From positions 1,760,001 to 1,824,000 of the forward strand of contig OY762926.1 of NCBI GenBank assembly GCA_963666735.1: DNA of 64,000 nt, in the 5' to 3' direction. Every line of letters starts with the position of its first letter. Positions within the stretch are counted from its first letter, which is position 1. Both the position numbers and the translations under genes were made by a program. Positions 48,913 through 62,671 of the stretch are shown in pieces. Source of the stretch: Gemmatimonadota bacterium. Lineage in GTDB: Bacteria > Gemmatimonadota > Gemmatimonadetes > Palauibacterales > Palauibacteraceae. The notes under the pieces were generated by a model, which saw nothing but the letters and a program-made list of their open reading frames with translations, had not been told where the DNA came from and did not search any database.

Positions 48913-49817
48913 CGGCGGGCTCTATCGCAAGCCCAGAGCTTCGCGCTCGTGTCGTATGTCACAACGCCCTTCCGCTTCAGGTATTGCTGCGCGTTCCTCA
49001 CCCCGTGCTTCCACCGCTTCCCGTAGCGCTCGCCGTTGATGACGAGTTCCTCGGAGTCGTCGCAGAGATCCGGTAACAGCCGACCAACCTCCTCGTGGAT
49101 CGCAGTTGTGGGTTGCGGTCCGTGCGCGAGCACAAAGCGAATCGCCTCGCCGAAGACCGAGTTCGCGCTTCTGCGCCCCACCTGTGCCCGGACGAACCGA
49201 GGTCTGGCGCTGCGCATGATCTTCCCGAACCTCGCTCGCGGCTCAAGCTCCGCAGCGTCGTCGGCTTTCTTTCTGGCTTGGCGGAGGTCGGTCTCAAGGG
49301 ACGCGAGTTCGCCGAGCGCACGTCGACTGACCTGATTCCCCAAGCGGGCGAACGAGTCCATGTCGTCGCGAATCGCGCGCACCAGCGACGGTTCGCGGAG
49401 CATCACGCCGTATTCGAGGTTTGTGTCGAGGCCTGCGCGGGTGAGGTTGCCCGATGTCACGACCGCCACCTTATCGTCGGCTATGAAGACCTTCGCATGC
49501 AGGTTGGGAAGCGCGAACACCCGCGCCTTGTCGGACTGTTCCGCGAAATGGACCAGGCCCGTGACATCAAGCGCGGACGAAGCGACCGCCTCGGCTCTGA
49601 TCGTGGTGAGCGTCACCAGTGCAACATCCTCGGCAAGCTGGCGACGGAACCAAACGGCGGCGGCATGGGTGACGAAGGGGACCGCGACCACCATGGAGTG
49701 GCGGGCGCTTGTGGCCATATCCGCTAACTCGGCACGCCAGCCCGGTCCCAAGAGTTGCGTCCGTTGGCCGGTCTCCCCCGTCCTCTCCGCCTCGCCCCCC
49801 GAGGTATCGAGCGTCAC
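48888..49817 (-). CDS. Phospholipase-D-family nuclease with C-terminal winged-helix-like domain
   Basis: Single HKD motif LHAKVFIAD....VTSGNLT..G...N.E.G, a helical linker, and C-terminal W...VR.A.Q.LK..G.V......W. The GTG start overlaps the upstream stop (GTGA). Confidence 0.78.
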   Translation of the reverse strand: MTLDTSGGEAERTGETGQRTQLLGPGWRAELADMATSARHSMVVAVPFVTHAAAVWFRRQLAEDVALVTLTTIRAEAVASSALDVTGLVHFAEQSDKARVFALPNLHAKVFIADDKVAVVTSGNLTRAGLDTNLEYGVMLREPSLVRAIRDDMDSFARLGNQVSRRALGELASLETDLRQARKKADDAAELEPRARFGKIMRSARPRFVRAQVGRRSANSVFGEAIRFVLAHGPQPTTAIHEEVGRLLPDLCDDSEELVINGERYGKRWKHGVRNAQQYLKRKGVVTYDTSAKLWACDRARRQPSLGRE

Positions 49818-50191
49818 GATGATGCCGAGCGTTTCCGGCCCAGCCCCTGCCAGATATCCCAACCGTTCGATGCATCTGAGACGGTCGCCATCACTGCCGC
49901 CACCTCGTCGGCCGTTCGGCCCTCGGCATCATTCCACTTCCCCGCGTCACCGACGTGGGCTTCCAGGAGCAACTCCAGAAGGACGTTGCTGACATACGAG
50001 CGCGTGTCGTTGGCGGCCTCCACGGCACCCACGGCGCACCACCGAACAGCGGCCGGGTCTTCCGGATCACACGTGCACCAATCGGCATCCGCTGCGACGT
50101 CACCTTGAATCCAACCGCGCCGGACGAATGCCGCGGCCTGCCGAAGGATTCGAGAAGCTCTGACGTATTCGTGCCTGTTCCTAGGTTCCAC
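49814..50191 (-). CDS. DUF6197-like small protein
   Basis: L..AA....GW.QG......C..GA...WND..GRT..EV pattern, preceded by an AAGGAGG ribosome-binding site. Confidence 0.65.
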   Translation of the reverse strand: MEPRNRHEYVRASRILRQAAAFVRRGWIQGDVAADADWCTCDPEDPAAVRWCAVGAVEAANDTRSYVSNVLLELLLEAHVGDAGKWNDAEGRTADEVAAVMATVSDASNGWDIWQGLGRKRSASS

Positions 50192-50236
50192 GGAGCCCCC
50201 TCCTTGTGAAGCAACCTGCCTTGCGGTTGAGAAACA

Positions 50237-50692
50237 TTACTCTACGGGGCGCGTGGCGGCGCGCTCGCGCACCGCATCCGGGGGCGCCGCGGTGATGATC
50301 CGACACGTGGGGCCGGTGGCCCGCGCGAGACGCCGGTCGAGCGTCAGCAGAGGGCACGAAAGCGTCTCGGCGAGGGCCACGTACCATCCGTCGTAGATGC
50401 TGAGGTTGTGGCGCAGTTCCCAGACGCGATCCGCGAGGGGTTCGAAGGGGAAGAGTTCGATCTCGAGCGCGAGTAGGTTTCGTTGGGCGAGACCGGCTTC
50501 CGAACTCTCGATCCGTTCGGCGAGCTCCAGGCGGCGAAGGACGTTGCTGGCCTCGGCGAGGGCGATCTGCGGACCGGCCAATGCACGGCCCTCGCGAGCT
50601 GCTTCCGCGATGACGGCTTCGGACCAGGCACCGTCCGGCCCGAGGTGGGCGACCGCCGCCGCAAGGACCGAGGCGTCAACGACAACCGTCAC
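50237..50692 (-). CDS. vapC: VapC family PIN-domain toxin
   Basis: VVVDAS, EASNVL, NLSIYD..YVALAE and LLTLDRRL, with four acidic residues. GTGA overlap with the antitoxin. Confidence 0.9.
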   Translation of the reverse strand: MTVVVDASVLAAAVAHLGPDGAWSEAVIAEAAREGRALAGPQIALAEASNVLRRLELAERIESSEAGLAQRNLLALEIELFPFEPLADRVWELRHNLSIYDGWYVALAETLSCPLLTLDRRLARATGPTCRIITAAPPDAVRERAATRPVE

Positions 50693-50925
50693 TTCCGGTC
50701 GGCGTCTCGCGCCTGCAGGATGCTCTCGGTGGTCACGCGATTGTTCGACAGCCGCTTGCGGGAGTGAACGTCCGCCAGCCACTCGTGAACGGCGGGTTTC
50801 GCCACCAGCCGCTTGAGTTCGGCGCGCAGATACCGCTGCATCGACTGGCCGCGAGAGGCCGCGCGAACCTTCAGCCGGTCACGCACTTCCTCGGGGATGT
50901 CTCGGATGGTGATTTGAACGCCCAT
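50689..50925 (-). CDS. Ribbon-helix-helix antitoxin (FitA/VapB-like)
   Basis: QITIRDIPEEVRDRLKVRAASRGQSMQ.YL; 78 aa; directly upstream of vapC. Confidence 0.85.
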   Translation of the reverse strand: MGVQITIRDIPEEVRDRLKVRAASRGQSMQRYLRAELKRLVAKPAVHEWLADVHSRKRLSNNRVTTESILQARDADRK

Positions 50926-55456: not shown

Positions 55457-58400
55457 CTATCCGTCCTGGTCCGTCGTGATGACGCGCCCCACCCTCGCCT
55501 GGAGCATCTGGTTGAACTCCGCGAGTTCGCCGGCGAGGACCGCCTGCAGCCGCACCGCCACCTCGTCGATCCGGTCGCTGAGGATCTGCGCCACCTCGGC
55601 GTGCTGGTCCGTGGGCGGGAAGTCCGCCGTGCCGACCGTGCGCTGGAGGTAGGACAGGCGGCCGCCGATCATCGAGGGCCAGCGCACGCCGTCGGGCCCG
55701 GTGTTCTTCAGCTGCACGAGTTCACCCTCCACCTCGATGAGCGACGCGTCGAGCGCCTCTCCCGCCGCGAGGATATCCTCGGCGTCCCCGGCGTCTTCCA
55801 GCACGGGTCGCAGATCGTAAATCTGGCGGCGCAGCAGTTCGATCTGGTTGACGATGCCGGCGACCCGGTTCCGGTCCTCGACGATGTCGTCGAGCAGCGC
55901 CTTCTGGGCCAGGATGTCCGCCATCGAACCCTCGGCGTTCGGGTCGCGGAGGACCGTCAGCTCCTCGGACCCCACGTCCTCGCCGTCCACTACCAGAGTG
56001 ACCGTGTAGGTTCCCGGCGGCTGCCGAGGCCCGCCGCCGCCGCCGAAGAAGCCGCCCCCGACCTGGCGGGAGACCTCGGGCATCGGCATCCAGTCCGCGA
56101 ACTGCGGCTTCGTCCGGTACTCGACCGGCTTCGCGTCCGGCCCCCGGAAGTTCCACCACACGCGGTTGAACCCGTCGTGGGTCGACCCGTCCAGGGTGGC
56201 GAGCGTCTCGCCCTCCGCGTTCTCGACCCGGACCTTCACTTCGCGCCCCTCCCCGCCGCCGAGCCAGTAGTTGATCGACGCCCCGTTGGGCGGGTTCTCG
56301 CCCACGGACCAGTCCTCGTACATCACCTGGGGTTCGGAGATGTCGTTGAAGCGGTACGCGTCGCGCGGCGCGAACAGGTGCGCGCCGGAGGCCGCGACCT
56401 CCGGCGTGAGCTGCTGCACGGGGCTCAGGTCGTCGAGGATCCAGTAGCCGCGCCCGTACGTCCCCGCCACGAAGTCGTTGAAGTGCTCCTGGATGATGAG
56501 GCCGTAGTACGGCGTCGGCGGGAGGTTCGGCATGAAGAGCTGCCAACTCTCCCCGTCGTCGTAGCTGATGTAGACGTTCGTCTCCGTGCCGAGGTAGAGG
56601 AGACCCGGCCGCACCGGGTCCTCGAGCAGGTAGCGGGTGTAGTCGACCGGATAGTTGTCGACCCCGTTCGTGATCTGCGTCCACGTCTCCCCGAAGTCGT
56701 CCGTCCTGTAGGCGCGCGCGTCGAAGTCGCCGACCTGGTGGTGCTCGATCGTGATGTACGCCTTGGCGACGTCGAAGCGTGAAGCGTCGATGCTCCGCAC
56801 GATCCCGTCGGGCGGCAGGTTCGGGATGTTCCCGGTGACGTTGGTCCATGTCGCGCCGTCATCGCGGCTCACCTGCACGAGGCCGTCGTTCGTGCCGGCC
56901 CAGAAGACGCCCTGCTGGATGGGCGACTCGTCGAAGGCGTAGATCACGCAGCAGAACTCGACGCCGATGTTGTCGGGCGTGAGCCCGCCGGAGATCGTCA
57001 TCTTCGAGCGGTCGTTCGTCGACAGGTCCGGGCTGATGACCTCCCAGCTCTGGCCCCGGTTGCGCGTGCGGTGCACGTGCTGGCTCGTGACGTAGATCGT
57101 CTCGTTGTCGTGCGGCGAAATGAGGAGGGGGAAGGTCCACTGGAAGCGGTAGCGGATCTCCTCCGCGGGATACCCCATCGTGGACTCGGGCCACACTTCC
57201 ACATCGCGGAACTGGCCGCGCTCGCGGTCGTGCCGCACGACGATGCCGCCGACGGCGCCGGCCCCGGAGGCGCTCGACCACACGATGTTCGGGTCCGTCG
57301 GATCGGGGGTCGCGAAGCCGCTCTCGCCGCCGCCCACGGTCGTCCAGTCGCCGCGCGGGATGAGTCCGCGCGCCCAGAAGCCGGTGTAGCGGGTGTTCGA
57401 CGGCCCGTGGTAGGAGGGCCCGTCCTGCCGGTTCCCCATCACGTTATAGGGAATCTCGTTGTCCACCGTGACATGGTACATCTGCGCGATGGGAAGCTGC
57501 ATGCGGGACCAGGACCGCATCCGGTTCTCCGTGATCGCCACGCCGCTGTCGCCGCCGATGAAGACGCGGTCCGCGTTGGTCGGGTCGACCCAGATGTCGT
57601 GCAGATCCCACCCTGGAGCCGCCGGGTCGCCGCCGGGGGGGCCGCCGCCGAGGAAGTTGAACATCTCGTACGTCGCGCCCCCGTCACGGCTCACGCTGAA
57701 GCTCGAGGAGAGGAAGTAGAGCTCGTCGCGGTCATCGGAGGAGACGCCGCAGCGGGTGTAGTAGGCCTGCCGGGAGGCGAGGTTGTGGCTGTAGTTCACG
57801 AGGCGCCACGCGCGGCCGCCGTCGTCGCTGCTCCACAACTCGCCCGTGTCGGTTTCGTAGCCCTCCATCGGCACGCCGTCGCTCGTCTCGATGAGGGCGT
57901 AAACGCGGTCGGAATCCGAGTGGGACATGCAGACGGCGATCTTCCCGAGCGTCCCCGTGGGGAGTCCGTTTCCCTCGAGTTCGGTCCAGGTGTCGCCGCC
58001 GTCCATCGTGAGGTGGAGCCCGCTCCCCGGGCCTCCGCTGTCGCGCTTCCACGTCTTGAGATCGATGTCCCACATCGTGGCGAAGATCTTCCGCGGGTTC
58101 GCCGGGTCCATGACCATGTCGTAGGCACCCGTCCCGCGGTCCGCGAACAGGACCCTCTCCCACGAGGCGCCGCCGTCGGTGGTGCGGTACACGCCGCGCT
58201 CGTCGGACTCCGCGTAGGCGTGCCCGAGCGCCGCGACGTAGACGATGTCCGCGTCGCGGGGGTGGATCAGGATGCGGCCCACCCGGCCGGTGCCCTCGAG
58301 CCCCATGTGGGTCCAGCTCTCGCCGCCATCGGTCGACTTCCAGACTCCGTTGCCGATCGAGACGTTGGAGCGGATCGAGGTCTCGCCCGTCCCCGCCCAC

Positions 58401-58708
58401 ACCACCGCGTGGTCGCTCGGGGCCACGGCGAGGGCGCCGATCGAGTGTACGGGCTGGTCGTCGAACACGGGCCGCCAGTGCAGCCCGGCGTCGTCCGTCT
58501 TCCAGATGCCGCCGGTCGCGGCGCCGGCGAAGTACGTGTTGCGGTCGCCCGGCACGCCGGCCACCGAGGAGACGCGGTTGCCAACCGGTCCGATGTGGCG
58601 CGCCCGCAGCCCCTCGTACTGCTCGGGGACGAGCTGCTGCGCGTCCAGCGGCACGACGGCCGCGAGGGCGAGGGCGAGACTGCTGGAGAAGCGGCGAACG
58701 TTGGACAT
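55457..58708 (-). CDS. Secreted BNR/Asp-box (VPS10/sortilin-like) beta-propeller protein
   Basis: Many S/T.DGG.(T/S)W Asp-boxes, R.IGP..R and a C-terminal helical tail. Confidence 0.85.
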   Translation of the reverse strand: MSNVRRFSSSLALALAAVVPLDAQQLVPEQYEGLRARHIGPVGNRVSSVAGVPGDRNTYFAGAATGGIWKTDDAGLHWRPVFDDQPVHSIGALAVAPSDHAVVWAGTGETSIRSNVSIGNGVWKSTDGGESWTHMGLEGTGRVGRILIHPRDADIVYVAALGHAYAESDERGVYRTTDGGASWERVLFADRGTGAYDMVMDPANPRKIFATMWDIDLKTWKRDSGGPGSGLHLTMDGGDTWTELEGNGLPTGTLGKIAVCMSHSDSDRVYALIETSDGVPMEGYETDTGELWSSDDGGRAWRLVNYSHNLASRQAYYTRCGVSSDDRDELYFLSSSFSVSRDGGATYEMFNFLGGGPPGGDPAAPGWDLHDIWVDPTNADRVFIGGDSGVAITENRMRSWSRMQLPIAQMYHVTVDNEIPYNVMGNRQDGPSYHGPSNTRYTGFWARGLIPRGDWTTVGGGESGFATPDPTDPNIVWSSASGAGAVGGIVVRHDRERGQFRDVEVWPESTMGYPAEEIRYRFQWTFPLLISPHDNETIYVTSQHVHRTRNRGQSWEVISPDLSTNDRSKMTISGGLTPDNIGVEFCCVIYAFDESPIQQGVFWAGTNDGLVQVSRDDGATWTNVTGNIPNLPPDGIVRSIDASRFDVAKAYITIEHHQVGDFDARAYRTDDFGETWTQITNGVDNYPVDYTRYLLEDPVRPGLLYLGTETNVYISYDDGESWQLFMPNLPPTPYYGLIIQEHFNDFVAGTYGRGYWILDDLSPVQQLTPEVAASGAHLFAPRDAYRFNDISEPQVMYEDWSVGENPPNGASINYWLGGGEGREVKVRVENAEGETLATLDGSTHDGFNRVWWNFRGPDAKPVEYRTKPQFADWMPMPEVSRQVGGGFFGGGGGPRQPPGTYTVTLVVDGEDVGSEELTVLRDPNAEGSMADILAQKALLDDIVEDRNRVAGIVNQIELLRRQIYDLRPVLEDAGDAEDILAAGEALDASLIEVEGELVQLKNTGPDGVRWPSMIGGRLSYLQRTVGTADFPPTDQHAEVAQILSDRIDEVAVRLQAVLAGELAEFNQMLQARVGRVITTDQDG

Positions 58709-58811
58709 GGCTCTCTGCCTCGTGAAGCGGGTCATTTGAGCGAGGAAACGTGCGGAGAAGAAGGGGCGCGGACCAGAGCCCGGGTTTCTTGGTTCAGGCT
58801 CGACGCCAACG

Positions 58812-59678
58812 TCAATCAGGGTCGCGGACATCCCCGGATGCTTCGTCAACCGCAGCGTCCCCATCCGGGTTTGTGGCTGTTGAGAGCCCCTTCCAGAAAC
58901 CGGCACGGATCTGGCGTTTGGTGTTCTCGGGAAGTGGGTCTCCTAAACGGTTCGCGGCCTCCTTGATCAGCCATACATCGATTAACCGCGGGATTCGCGG
59001 CCGGTGTGCCAGGATTCCTGCAACCGCTTCCGCGTCGCGCGCACTTCGAATGGCCCAACCACATGCTTCGCCAAAACTGGTCGCTGTTGCGTCCGTAGCG
59101 ATGTTCACCGGTATGTGGCGGTGAGCCTCGTCGGCCTTCCCTGCGTGTCGTGAGATGAATCGAGTGCAATCGTTGCGCGATAACGTGATCAGGTCATCGA
59201 CTTCCCGAACGAGCGTCGCTGCCTGATTGGCTCTCCTCGGTAGGGGTTCTATCCCAAGGAGGACCACGGAGACCCCGAACTCTTGCGCCTCGACGACGCC
59301 TTCCCGCACGTCCTCATCTCCGCTCATCAGGTATGCCGTGCGTACAGCTCCGTTCCGGGACAGTACGATGAGGTCCCGCACGATGCGGGAGTCTACCCCT
59401 TTCTGACCGTGTTTCGTCAGGCGACCCAAGCGAAGCTTGACCCCCTGCTGTCCGCCGATGTGCAACTGGTCGTCGGTAGGAACGGCATCCGGTGCGGCAT
59501 CGTACCAGTAGGTTCTGAGATGCACCTGCTTCGCATGGCTATCGCAGCGTGTCCTCAAGAGCACGGTCGCCTTCTCGGGGTGGAGGATCAGGTCAGCTCG
59601 ACGGCTGGTACCGAAACATAGATCCCCGGCAGCTGCAAGAAGATACCCGGCGTCAATGAAGATCGCGTACCGGTCCAT
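58812..59678 (-). CDS. NYN domain (LabA/DUF88 PIN-like) putative ribonuclease
   Basis: AIFIDAGY, YWYDA, QKGVD..I..DL, L.SGD.D and L..E.D. Preceded by an AGGAGG SD. Visibly more A/T-rich codons than its neighbours. Confidence 0.88.
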   Translation of the reverse strand: MDRYAIFIDAGYLLAAAGDLCFGTSRRADLILHPEKATVLLRTRCDSHAKQVHLRTYWYDAAPDAVPTDDQLHIGGQQGVKLRLGRLTKHGQKGVDSRIVRDLIVLSRNGAVRTAYLMSGDEDVREGVVEAQEFGVSVVLLGIEPLPRRANQAATLVREVDDLITLSRNDCTRFISRHAGKADEAHRHIPVNIATDATATSFGEACGWAIRSARDAEAVAGILAHRPRIPRLIDVWLIKEAANRLGDPLPENTKRQIRAGFWKGLSTATNPDGDAAVDEASGDVRDPD

Positions 59679-59704
59679 CCGATCGATCCCTCCTGCGAAA
59701 AGCG

Positions 59705-59739
59705 AAAAAAAACGGGCCCCCGCCAAAAGGCGGGGACCC
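59705..59739 (-). terminator. Intrinsic terminator immediately upstream of the NYN gene
   Basis: Minus strand GGGTCCCCGCC-TTTT-GGCGGGGGCCC-G-TTTTTTTT: an 11-bp stem with one G-U pair, followed by U8. Confidence 0.85.
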
Positions 59740-59781
59740 CAAGATCAGGGCCGCAGAGGCCCCAGTCCAAAACAACTAGTG
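59705..59781 (-). ncRNA. Putative ~75-nt two-hairpin leader or small RNA
   Basis: Lies between the predicted promoter and the terminator. Hairpin 1 is GGACTGGGGCC-TCTGC-GGCCCTGATCT (59742-59768); hairpin 2 is the terminator. Confidence 0.45.
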
Positions 59782-59787
59782 GTAAGT

Positions 59788-59816
59788 ACGCTAATCGTGC
59801 GGCATGGGTTCCACAA
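59788..59816 (-). promoter_or_regulatory. Putative sigma-70 promoter for the NYN leader RNA
   Basis: Minus strand TTGTGG-17 nt-TAGCGT, followed by an AT-rich start region. Confidence 0.5.
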
Positions 59817-59864
59817 GATCCCATTTCGGACCCGGGCTTACCTCGTCGCGAAGGCCCCGAAGCG

Positions 59865-61049
59865 TCAGTTGTAGGCCGGGAGGCCGGTCTCGTCGTGTCC
59901 CAGGATGAGGGAGTGAATGTCGTGCGTGCCCTCGTAGGTATAGACCGACTCCAGGTTCGCCATGTGACGCATGGAGGCGTACTCGGCGAGGATCCCGTTC
60001 GCGCCGAGCAGCCGCCGCGACTCGCGGGCGCAATCGCACGCCATGTTCACGTTGTTTCGCTTCGCGAGGGAAACGTGCTGCGGCCGCATCGTGCCTTCGT
60101 CCTTCATCCGCCCGAGCCGGAGGCAGAGGAGCTGCGCCTTCGTGATCTCGGTGAGCATGTCCGCGATCCGGACCTGCTGGATCTGGGTCTGCGCGATCGG
60201 CGTCCCGTCGAACTGCACGCGGTTCTTCGCGTACTCGACCGACTCGCGGTAGCAGCCCATGGCGGCGCCGACCGCCCCCCACGAGATCCCGTACCGCGCC
60301 TGCGTGAGACACTTCAGCGGGCTCTTGAGTCCCCCGCTGCCCGGGAGGAGGTTCGTGCGCGGCACCCGCACGTCCTGCAGCACGAGTTCGGAGGTGTCGG
60401 ACGCCAGGAGCGACAGTTTCCCCTTCTGGTCGCTGGCGGAGAAGCCGTCGCGCCCGGTCTCGACGAGAAAGCCGCGGATCGACCCGACGTCATCCAGGTC
60501 TCCGGTCTTGGCCCAGATCACCGCGATGTCGGCCATCGATCCGTTCGTAATCCACATCTTGGCGCCGTTCAGGACCCACTCGTCCCCGTCCTCGACGGCC
60601 CGCGTGATCATGCCGCCGGGGTTGGAGCCGAAGTCGGGCTCGGTGAGGCCGAAGCACCCGATGGACTCGCCGCTCGCCAGCCGCGGCAGCCACGCGCGCT
60701 TCTGTTCCTCCGATCCGAAGGCGAAGATCGGGTACATGACGAGGGCGCCCTGTACCGAGACGAAGGAGCGGAGTCCCGAGTCCGCCCGCTCGAGTTCCTG
60801 CATGATGAGGCCGTAGGCCACGTTGTTGAGACCCGCGCAGCCGTACTCCTCGGGGAGGTTCGCCCCGAAGAATCCGAGTTCGCCCATCTGGGGGATGAGT
60901 TCCCGCGGGAACGTGCGTTCGATGTAGTGGTGGCCGATGATGGGCAGGACTTCCCGGTCCACCCACTCGCGCACCAGATCCCGGATGGCCGTCTCCTCTT
61001 CGTGGAGGAGCGCATCGAGATTGAAGTAATCGACACCCTCGAAACTCAT
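59865..61049 (-). CDS. Acyl-CoA dehydrogenase, glutaryl-CoA dehydrogenase-like
   Basis: ELER.DSG.RS..SVQ..LVM.PI, GCFGLTEPD.GS, G.KMWITNG, ARYGI.WG and NLESVYTYEGTHDIH.LI.G. Confidence 0.88.
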   Translation of the reverse strand: MSFEGVDYFNLDALLHEEETAIRDLVREWVDREVLPIIGHHYIERTFPRELIPQMGELGFFGANLPEEYGCAGLNNVAYGLIMQELERADSGLRSFVSVQGALVMYPIFAFGSEEQKRAWLPRLASGESIGCFGLTEPDFGSNPGGMITRAVEDGDEWVLNGAKMWITNGSMADIAVIWAKTGDLDDVGSIRGFLVETGRDGFSASDQKGKLSLLASDTSELVLQDVRVPRTNLLPGSGGLKSPLKCLTQARYGISWGAVGAAMGCYRESVEYAKNRVQFDGTPIAQTQIQQVRIADMLTEITKAQLLCLRLGRMKDEGTMRPQHVSLAKRNNVNMACDCARESRRLLGANGILAEYASMRHMANLESVYTYEGTHDIHSLILGHDETGLPAYN

Positions 61050-61321
61050 TCGCGAATTTCTCCGGACTCGGGGCAGCCCGTGGCTGCCGGTTGAGAGGCG
61101 GCGGACGAATCCGCGCGGAAACAGCGGAAACAATGGACGCCGAGCGCGACGCCGGCGACGGCGAGGAGGATGCCGGCGGCGACTCCCGGCCAGCCGTACA
61201 CGTGCGCATTGATGACGAGGACGATCCCGACCATGGTGGCGAGCGCCGCGGCCGGAAGTCCCAGCACGGTCCGGATGCCGGCGCGCGGGCCGGGCCGGGA
61301 GCCTATCGGCCGAGACGCCAT
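61046..61321 (-). CDS. Small two-TM hypothetical membrane protein
   Basis: Two hydrophobic helices; the stop overlaps the acyl-CoA dehydrogenase ATG (ATGA). Confidence 0.55.
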   Translation of the reverse strand: MASRPIGSRPGPRAGIRTVLGLPAAALATMVGIVLVINAHVYGWPGVAAGILLAVAGVALGVHCFRCFRADSSAASQPAATGCPESGEIRE

Positions 61322-61626
61322 CGGGTGTAGCCCTTCACGACCTCGCGGCCGATGCGGAAACCGAGATAGTACGCGGCCACGAGCGGCAGCCCCCACGCGT
61401 AGGCGGGCAGGAAGCCGAGATCGGGGGAGGTGCGGAGCCAGATCGCAACCCAGACGGCGAAGGGCAGCGTGATGCACGCGGCGACGACGTGGCGCCAAAG
61501 CCGCATGCGCCGCTGCATGCGCGGGCCGCAGGCCTCGCACCAGTCGTCGGCGTCCAACCGTCCCTTGGGAAACATCTGGCCGCAGGCGCCGCACATCACG
61601 CCCTTGAAATGAAGCTCGTCCGTCAT
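61303..61626 (-). CDS. Small zinc-ribbon plus two-TM membrane protein
   Basis: CGAC...CEAC followed by two hydrophobic helices. Confidence 0.65.
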   Translation of the reverse strand: MTDELHFKGVMCGACGQMFPKGRLDADDWCEACGPRMQRRMRLWRHVVAACITLPFAVWVAIWLRTSPDLGFLPAYAWGLPLVAAYYLGFRIGREVVKGYTRWRLGR

Positions 61627-61636
61627 TCCGCGCCGG

Positions 61637-62671
61637 TCATTCACCGGCGGCGTCCAGTCGTTCGATCACCGCGTCGGCGAACTCCGCCGTGCCGGCGGAA
61701 CCGCCGATGTCCGGGGTATGGCCGACATCCTCGTGCAGGGTCCGGTGCAGCGCGGCGCGGATGCGCGCGGCGACCTCGGGTTCATCGAGGTGGTCGAGCA
61801 GGAGGCAGCCTGCGAGCAGGAGGGAGGTGGGGTTCGCGATCCCCTGCCCCGCGATGTCCGGCGCCGACCCATGCACCGCCTCGAAGATCGCGGCCCGCTC
61901 GCCGAGGTTCGCGCCCGGCGCGAAGCCGAGCCCGCCGATGAGTCCCGCGACCTGATCCGAGAGGATGTCGCCGAACATGTTCTCGGTCACGATCACGTCG
62001 AAGCGGTACGGATCCAGTGCGAGTTGCATCGCCGTGGCGTCCACGATCTTGTCGTCGAATTCCACCCTTCCCTCGTACTCGGCCGCGACGTTGCGCCCGA
62101 CCTCGAGGAAGAGACCCTGCGTATACTTGAGGATATTCGCCTTATGGACGAGGGTCACGAGACGACGGTTGTGGGCGAGGGCGTACTCGAACGCGAAGCG
62201 CACGATGCGACGCGACCCGTAGCGCGTAATGAGCATGACGGACTCGGCGACGGCGCGCGGGTCGTTCTCCATCCCGATGAAGTGCTCGATCCCGGCGTAG
62301 AGGCCCTCGGTGTTCTCGCGCACGATGACGAGGTCCACATCCGGATAGCGGGCGGCCGGAAGGAGGGTTACGGCGGGACGGACGTTCGCGTAGAGGTCGA
62401 AATGCTTGCGGAGCGCGACGTTCACCGACCGGAAACCCGAGCCGATGGGAGTGGTGAGCGGCCCCTTGAGCGCGACGCCGGTCGCCTCGATCGATTCGAG
62501 AGTCGCCTGCGGAAGCGGCTCTCCGGCGGCCTCCATGGCGGTCACGCCGCCGAGGCGTTCGCGCCAGCGGATGGGCGCGCCCGCGGCCTCCAGGATCGCA
62601 ACGGTGGCTTCGGATATCTCCGGGCCAATGCCGTCGCCCGGAATCAACACGACGTCGTGTATCGGTTTCAT
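61637..62671 (-). CDS. Isocitrate dehydrogenase (NAD-type) / beta-decarboxylating dehydrogenase family
   Basis: GDGIGPEI, KGPLTTP.G.GFRSVNVALRK, RENTEG.Y, HKANI, ENMFGDILSD and EAVHGSAPDIAG. Confidence 0.9.
   Translation of the reverse strand: MKPIHDVVLIPGDGIGPEISEATVAILEAAGAPIRWRERLGGVTAMEAAGEPLPQATLESIEATGVALKGPLTTPIGSGFRSVNVALRKHFDLYANVRPAVTLLPAARYPDVDLVIVRENTEGLYAGIEHFIGMENDPRAVAESVMLITRYGSRRIVRFAFEYALAHNRRLVTLVHKANILKYTQGLFLEVGRNVAAEYEGRVEFDDKIVDATAMQLALDPYRFDVIVTENMFGDILSDQVAGLIGGLGFAPGANLGERAAIFEAVHGSAPDIAGQGIANPTSLLLAGCLLLDHLDEPEVAARIRAALHRTLHEDVGHTPDIGGSAGTAEFADAVIERLDAAGE

Follow-up and report, generated by a model that had tools for sequence, protein, structure and literature searches.

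The window analysed here, a 64,000-nucleotide stretch of a Gemmatimonadota genome that named relatives place near Ca. Palauibacter, carries on its minus strand a compact cassette in which a promoter, a short structured RNA and an intrinsic terminator precede a gene for a nuclease of the NYN (PIN-like) fold. Judged from comparative sequence analysis, the cassette is on balance probably a stand-alone, mobile, type III-like toxin/RNA-antitoxin module with an AbiF-style architecture. The predicted RNA unit before the NYN gene is a family-wide feature, and the conserved protein-RNA module is real and apparently undescribed. The components of the cassette, its two flanking genes and two further NYN loci of the same genome are listed in Table 1.

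Table 1 Positions of the cassette components in the window, of the flanking genes and of two other NYN genes of the genome
Feature	Position	Strand	Details and basis
Sigma70-type promoter	59788..59816	-	-35 TTGTGG 59816-59811, 17-nt spacer, -10 TAGCGT 59793-59788
Transcription start, predicted	near 59781	-	inferred
Candidate antitoxin ncRNA, predicted, ~77 nt	59705..59781	-	U-rich 5' segment, core hairpin, linker, terminator; from folding
Family core motif	59747..59775	-	U-rich single-stranded linker ending in U, then hairpin (stem 59763-59747); anchored comparison, alignments
Intrinsic terminator	59705..59739	-	stem 59739-59714, 11 pairs (10 G-C), T8 59712-59705
Shine-Dalgarno AGGAGG	59689..59694	-	sequence
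NYN ORF, 288 aa	58812..59678	-	Pfam PF01936, E 6e-9
Acyl-CoA dehydrogenase gene (flank, outside cassette)	59865..61049	-	Pfam
VPS10/BNR-repeat glycosyl-hydrolase-like gene (flank, outside cassette)	55457..58708	-	Pfam, NCBIfam
Family A NYN (HEC-09-like), L157/L161 (outside window)	G000:C1:271945-272568	-	
Family B NYN (phrog_5783), L159/L172 (outside window)	G000:C1:2579777-2580412	-	

A sequence-only reading of this DNA had described a TTGTGG-N17-TAGCGT promoter, a small structured RNA with a hairpin and an 11-bp/U8 terminator ending 26 nt before the ATG (59678), and an AGGAGG Shine-Dalgarno sequence, and each of these elements was recovered where it had been placed. Folding assigns the terminator -26.1 kcal/mol with pair probabilities of 0.99-1.0. 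The hairpin of the core motif has a 5' arm that runs from purines to pyrimidines and a purine-rich 3' arm. On its own the promoter is weak, matching the consensus at three of six positions in each hexamer, and a promoter scanner returned no promoter-like site over 56000-62000. It is credible only because its hexamers and spacing are kept in the related loci G123, G017 and L054, with the spacer sequence changed in G123, and because near-consensus hexamers take their place in L055 and L056. RNAs nearly identical to that of the window are found in G123, G017, G002, G016, G427 and G325. Four DNA runs, drawn from two studies, yield assemblies of the cassette that agree with the window, with no joint listed across it.

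The NYN protein consists of a nuclease domain (residues ~1-177), a flexible linker and a conserved four-helix C-terminal domain (~199-267). The earlier description of a NYN/PIN-like gene with intact acidic motifs is borne out by the Pfam match and by the acidic residues D9, D96, D121 and D123, which are invariant across 109 aligned homologues. An AlphaFold2 model was obtained at a pLDDT of 91, and the top fold match is the MARF1 NYN domain (5yaa; Z 16.7, rmsd 2.8, 146 aligned), followed by 2qip (Z 16.5, rmsd 3.1, 149 aligned). A search by sequence found no solved structure for the protein. For the C-terminal domain, a single-sequence model (pLDDT 76) gave a best Z of 7.8 to unrelated helical bundles, with no clear match, and no OST-HTH was hit in this domain by Pfam. 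The Atlas search with the NYN protein returned only NYN clusters and one unnamed set. No PADLOC 2.0 family matched the window protein or four of its homologues, and the PHROG search with the window protein gave no match; a single phage record carries a protein of the window type, and the one homologue on a viral contig has no RNA unit. R125 is found in 95% of 63 RNA-bearing proteins vs 29% of 17 RNA-less ones, a contrast to be read as a lead only, as one search word contained R125 and related proteins are not independent. One database protein (P0029) has its NYN domain joined to a piece of an IS110-family transposase (PF02371), which is probably an insertion into a NYN gene.

The distribution of the RNA unit was examined in 89 homologue loci, comprising 80 metagenome contigs (the best 80 of 198), one viral contig and eight genome loci. 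Three loci with short upstream sequence were dropped, and dereplication at <80% identity reduced the remaining 86 to 65, with 35-68% identity. A terminator lies within 120 nt before the start in 53 of the 65 loci, compared with 2 of 45 neighbouring ORFs, 21 of 735 genes of this genome, 2 of 65 reverse strands and 1 of 61 downstream windows. Four additional units missed by the caller were recognised by eye (L077, L103, L123 and L131), and two more stand on the opposite strand, giving 59 of 65 in total; 57 of these units are in cis and in sense orientation, most of them 11-37 nt ahead of the start. On our own promoter scale, with the threshold set at a score of at least 7, a promoter was scored upstream of 46 of the 53 terminators, against 117 of 1060 shuffles and 6 of 159 coding windows. 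The predicted RNAs are 34-102 nt long, the shortest (34 nt) occurring in L087 and L092, and they are built alike: a variable 5' hairpin may come first, followed by a U-rich linker with U as its last base and a core hairpin of 6-8 bp. In many loci the core hairpin is itself the terminator; in the window and other clades it precedes a separate terminator. By eye, on a quick tree, the RNA subtypes appear to follow the protein clades. All five proteobacterial-plasmid and phage-scaffold loci possess the unit. Conservation of the upstream structure among homologues, on which the sequence-only reading had made its proposal depend, is seen in the terminator, in the promoter and in a covarying hairpin.

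The RNA marks most of the family and not all of it, given that no unit is present within the fetched DNA of six of the 65 loci (L032, L085, L116, L124, L126 and L134) or in seven more distant actinobacterial plasmid homologues. In L032, L116 and L126, which lack the RNA, every catalytic aspartate is preserved; it seems, then, that some intact proteins can do without an RNA close by. L124 shows Asp-to-Glu changes at two active-site positions together with a degenerate unit. Separately, L078, L085 and L105 represent an RNA-less NYN clade with altered motifs that is apparently fixed between infB and rbfA (neighbours read by eye); this clade has possibly been domesticated for RNA metabolism.

The aligned sequences indicate that the family hairpin is more than a terminator, being sequence-specific and covarying. 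The stem opens with G in 96% of the 53 family hairpins, whereas the share is 50% among 102 ordinary terminators of this genome. The upper 5' arm of the family hairpins is also rich in pyrimidines. A hairpin pattern, written after the data had been seen, matched 43 of the 53 family hairpins and 10 of the 102 ordinary terminators. The loop contains an invariant U in 27 hairpins from 21 loci. In the 8-bp class, the set used for counting covariation and one that leaves the 6-bp version of the window outside, two-sided changes occur at seven of the eight pairs (30 cells vs 7.0 when shuffled); the 27 hairpins were chosen for equal length and stem formation, which makes the percentage paired circular, and related sequences inflate the counts. 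These features bear on a generic explanation, namely that any strong terminator would lower the expression of a mildly harmful mobile gene and that the RNA has no function. In its favour, terminators are by nature G-C hairpins with covarying stems, and our covariance model of the RNA is low in information. Against it, ordinary terminators of this genome do not show the sequence bias, other clades retain a second motif hairpin before a separate terminator, and opposite-strand and tandem copies of the unit exist, which leaves this explanation a very slim chance.

The covariance model (R1) rests on a MAFFT alignment in which the register slips between subtypes, and it is weak: the window's own site scores only 14.6 bits, and the genome-wide search missed the site of this very genome. 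Across 67 sequence sources its matches were confined to NYN-linked or orphan units, with none in 23 empty-site loci; of its nine matches in the genus, seven resemble ordinary terminators or chance. Proteobacterial plasmid units were matched weakly and were recognised by eye. Rfam searches at the gathering score gave no family for the window RNA, the best match being rnk_pseudo at 28.5 bits against a cut-off of 55, which is driven by the terminator, and returned only tRNAs in 20 homologue loci and no match in seven further loci.

The sequence-only reading had further noted cross-complementary hairpin arms and proposed a switch by refolding. The complementarity exists and is energetically negligible: the best pairing between the 5' arm of the window terminator and the upstream RNA gains 4.2 kcal/mol vs 26.1 kcal/mol for the terminator itself. 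None of 46 RNAs has a competing fold stronger than its terminator, with a best gain of 5.8 kcal/mol against a median terminator of -16, and the refolding switch was abandoned. A riboswitch or RNA-refolding attenuator was likewise rejected, as no conserved competing antiterminator was found in these 46 RNAs. A broader version, in which a phage or stress signal triggers antitermination and turns the nuclease on, can still appeal to the fact that the terminator gates the gene, to the short complementarities in the window, and to a protein antiterminator, which would need no alternative fold. Against it stand the missing competing folds and the opposite-strand units, which cannot attenuate, and we regard it as the least probable of the alternatives considered.

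Two other identities for the RNA were discarded. The first, 6S RNA, gave no RF00013 match in the window or the genome. The second, a long ncRNA spanning the whole intergenic gap, has a stable 167-nt fold (z -3.9) but no Rfam match, and G123 is without its 5' half. In G123 the same cassette occupies the identical site with only ~20 nt separating its -35 box from the stop codon upstream, so the unit begins at the promoter and the fold of the whole gap is incidental. As regards 6S RNA in general, none was detected by RF00013 in the whole genome (G000, 94% complete), with a control positive in only 5 of 14 known genomes; the 6S RNA of this lineage may be divergent.

The promoter, RNA, terminator and NYN gene together are a horizontally acquired mobile cassette that is absent from most of the genus. 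As had been pointed out earlier, the gene is less GC-rich than its flanks (GC 0.60 vs 0.66/0.69), and at third codon positions the difference is larger (GC3 0.66 vs 0.91 and 0.95). The flanking acyl-CoA dehydrogenase gene is also found in relatives without the cassette. At 21 of the 22 genus loci fetched, no RNA-like element follows the dehydrogenase stop, and in 8 of the 22 a VPS10-like gene comes directly after the dehydrogenase (by eye). The homologues, moreover, stand beside unrelated genes. A terminator that merely ends the dehydrogenase mRNA, which the sequence-only reading had considered fatal to its own proposal, is thereby ruled out. Of the genomes searched, the protein was detected in 1 of 35 others in the genus, 2 of 113 in the family and 6 of 400 in the phylum, counts that are limited by incomplete genomes. 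Intact cassettes occur in cultured, harmless hosts, Sinorhizobium sp. CCBAU 05631 and two Azospirillum species; SS05631_RS29490 of that Sinorhizobium and HUE56_RS06540 of Azospirillum oryzae encode intact homologues. On Sinorhizobium symbiotic plasmids (L144/L145), the cassette adjoins a RES-Xre toxin-antitoxin pair and a ThiF-family gene.

The position of the unit relative to the gene allows action in cis and in trans to be weighed. In the first case, the hairpin would be an operator in the 5' leader of the nuclease's own mRNA, and by binding or cutting this hairpin the nuclease would restrict its own level; the terminator would only damp expression, and the short RNA would be a by-product or at most a sponge. 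Autoregulation of this kind is exercised by the mRNA leaders of RNase E and RNase III. The predominance of sense-strand units in cis shortly before the start, the many loci in which the motif hairpin is the terminator itself, and the MARF1 NYN domain as the nearest solved fold all agree with it. However, two loci depart from this layout. In L066 the whole unit, including a strong promoter and the sister clade's type of hairpin, is encoded downstream of the gene, on the other strand and convergent with it; the unit of L104 is upstream, also on the opposite strand but divergent, and has a strong promoter and the motif of its clade. Both units keep the motif, although in sense form it cannot be part of the mRNA. 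They are the only two such cases and both are antisense to the likely mRNA, so that interference or antisense action could explain them.

Tandem arrangements raise a similar difficulty for an operator. Seven of the 65 loci contain two units, and 11 of these 14 units have a promoter score of at least 7; Azospirillum thermophilum, in addition to the seven, carries two units as well. The tandem units differ in sequence, and the distal ones keep the motif although each has a terminator of its own at the end. A strong promoter combined with a strong terminator would also be wasteful for a pure leader. We therefore consider autoregulation in cis unlikely as the whole account, and it could coexist with the toxin/RNA-antitoxin reading. 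The RNA is also kept after damage to the gene in four lineages: in G017 only the 3' tail of the NYN gene is left; in G002 and G016 the RNA stands behind a BrnT/BrnA pair, and the window query finds no NYN match; in G325 the first 71 codons are missing; and in S. fredii NGR234 the gene has an early stop. Such retention may simply be recent. The opposite-strand, tandem and orphan units share a free, motif-bearing RNA, which points to a protein-binding role, and by these comparisons the RNA looks trans-acting.

A trans-acting RNA might also be an activating cofactor or guide that joins the nuclease in a ribonucleoprotein, with target RNAs selected by the variable 5' part or by the pyrimidine-rich arm. 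A constant handle next to a variable 5' hairpin would suit such a role, as would tandem units of different sequence, and AbiF-type RNAs have been put forward as precursors of Cas13 guides in a review (PMC12737573). The variable part is, however, a self-paired hairpin or altogether absent, as in the 34-nt RNAs; arrays of more than two units were not seen; and the RNA persists after gene loss. A guide function is accordingly very unlikely, although slightly less so than a functionless RNA. In L028 (5127-6070) and L027 (1-900), an orphan RNA unit behind BrnT/BrnA is bracketed by a direct repeat of the 3' end of brnA and looks like the scar of an integrated element that lost its NYN gene.

No conserved neighbour gene was found among 150 flanking ORFs of 53 loci (script-called ORFs, 150 of 158 examined), in agreement with the earlier remark that the gene has no protein partner. 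A neighbour connected with defence, toxin-antitoxin systems or mobile elements (restriction, HEPN, AbiEi, antidote, integrase, transposase or similar) is present in 14 of the 53 loci, by our own reading and without a matched control, and a tRNA gene lies within 8 of 58 loci. Most cassettes stand alone between housekeeping genes. This neighbourhood is no less compatible with a selfish addiction module than with a defence-island gene, and the support for a defence role is modest. Two loci deserve separate mention. In L064 (2465-5295), a micro-island between two tRNA-Ile copies contains the NYN gene and two RNA units along with genes for a Swt1-like HEPN protein and a DUF5343 protein, and is a candidate compact defence island. 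In L066 (~900-1235), an ImmA/IrrE-like peptidase gene (by eye) stands ahead of the NYN gene.

Under the toxin/RNA-antitoxin reading, the single promoter would yield mostly short terminated RNA, and occasional read-through of the terminator would produce little nuclease mRNA, which would leave the RNA in large excess. The nuclease would bind the core hairpin, plausibly with its C-terminal helical domain, and the single-stranded, U-rich linker would block the metal-binding site by lying in or next to it. Once transcription of the unit stops, through loss of the cassette or host shut-off by a phage, the RNA would decay and the freed nuclease would cut cellular RNA, by analogy with known systems. 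The RNA-antitoxin analogy of the sequence-only reading has gained strong comparative support from the conserved unit, its motif and its opposite-strand, tandem and orphan copies; the antitermination branch that it offered as an alternative has not.

The closest parallel is AbiF/RCd22 of Clostridioides difficile (abiF motif, Rfam RF03085). For the same layout, the portion of the study available to us reports proven action in cis, as a terminator, and in trans, by protein binding (10.1101/2025.04.15.648962). As far as that portion describes it, the shared features are one promoter, a short structured RNA carrying one hairpin motif or two, an intrinsic terminator, a nuclease gene expressed by read-through and the absence of a protein antitoxin. 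In contrast to AbiF, a HEPN nuclease by the same partial description, the window protein has the NYN/PIN fold; no RF03085 match was found in the window or in 20 homologue loci; and the NYN RNAs span 34-102 nt where those given for AbiF span 88-132 nt. The ToxIN, CptIN and TenpIN systems, as described in the part of the source consulted (PMC5086642), resemble the module in the order of promoter, RNA, Rho-independent terminator and endoribonuclease gene and in their patchy, mobile distribution. They differ in that the NYN RNA has, as read from the folds, one core hairpin and no repeat array processed to monomers. An H-type pseudoknot is given as a feature of their antitoxins (PMC5086642). Duplications in the NYN family involve whole promoter-RNA-terminator units. 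Nor is the toxin a homologue of ToxN, CptN or TenpN, since Pfam identifies NYN only and the fold matches lie at Z 16.5-16.7. Of the features in the broad definition of type III, a promoter-ncRNA-terminator-gene unit is found here, as a prediction from sequence and not from transcripts, and a protein antitoxin is lacking. For the two others, a toxic free protein and an RNA that would bind and neutralise it in trans, the pointers are indirect: the intact acidic residues and the four gene-damage events that spared the RNA for the former, the opposite-strand and tandem units for the latter.

Among protein families, the window protein shares its fold and acidic active-site residues with NYN.COG1432/LabA/DUF88 (PF01936; 2qip; 5yaa), a group entered in the consulted part of the 2017 classification with 8754 sequences and function unknown (PMC5499597). 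Unlike that group as described there, it has a four-helix C-terminal domain, no Pfam OST-HTH hit and a cognate RNA unit. Like the type II PIN toxins of VapBC it is a predicted RNase of the PIN superfamily, and unlike them it has no VapB-like partner. It resembles HEC-09, a single-gene NYN defence candidate, in being a lone NYN gene but has no HEC-09 match; for HEC-09, the accessible text mentions no RNA and reports no defence against the phages tested (10.1101/2024.01.29.577857). By analogy, the NYN module would work like AbiF and type III systems while being a member of no named family. In the literature covered, outside which lie subscription papers and supplements, no RNA paired with a bacterial NYN gene was found, and an entry in a motif-catalogue supplement is possible.

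Two of the four other NYN genes of the window genome also show a promoter, a structured RNA and a U tract, followed by the start. The two families to which they belong share with the window protein only the GVD/GD motif region. In family A, a strong promoter, a nearly invariant ~50-nt hairpin RNA and a U tract precede the start in 9 of 10 loci, with no obvious Shine-Dalgarno sequence at the locus; the RNA matches no Rfam family, and the closest PADLOC model for its protein is HEC-09 (E 4e-16). In family B, the promoter is followed by an RNA with a long stem, an inner hairpin and a 3' bulge; all the genome loci (6 of 6) and all the phage loci looked at (4 of 4, one of them by eye) show it. The family B protein occurs in 65 phage records, and in the lambdoid phage 2B8 its gene directly follows the repressor gene. 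The 2B8 cassette has the same general layout, but it belongs to another subfamily than the window protein and lends no independent support for function. Thus three subfamilies in one genome come with different conserved RNAs (59/65, 9/10, and 6/6 plus 4/4 in phages). On this basis, several divergent NYN/LabA subfamilies, each with a cognate small RNA, quite possibly make up a widespread, undescribed PIN-fold branch of RNA-antitoxin systems. Held just as tentatively, such a branch would parallel the MazF-like branch, ToxN being MazF-like, and the HEPN branch, with tandem units as a proto-array of the kind proposed for Cas13 ancestors.

If the toxin/RNA-antitoxin reading is correct, it would supply a mechanism for part of a very large nuclease family that the consulted part of the 2017 classification lists as of unknown function (PMC5499597), and would enlarge the small set of known RNA-antitoxin systems by a new toxin fold and new RNA families. 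Lone NYN genes could then be misjudged in experiments, as a gene cloned with its upstream region would be neutralised beforehand and one cloned without it might be lethal. The small parts (an RNA of 34-100 nt and a protein of 270-290 aa) and the cultured hosts make the claim directly testable. Elsewhere in the window, at 49814-50782 on the minus strand, a PIN-domain gene (PF01850) is followed by a DUF6197 gene; together with an unannotated upstream antitoxin, the PIN gene is probably a VapBC-like pair.
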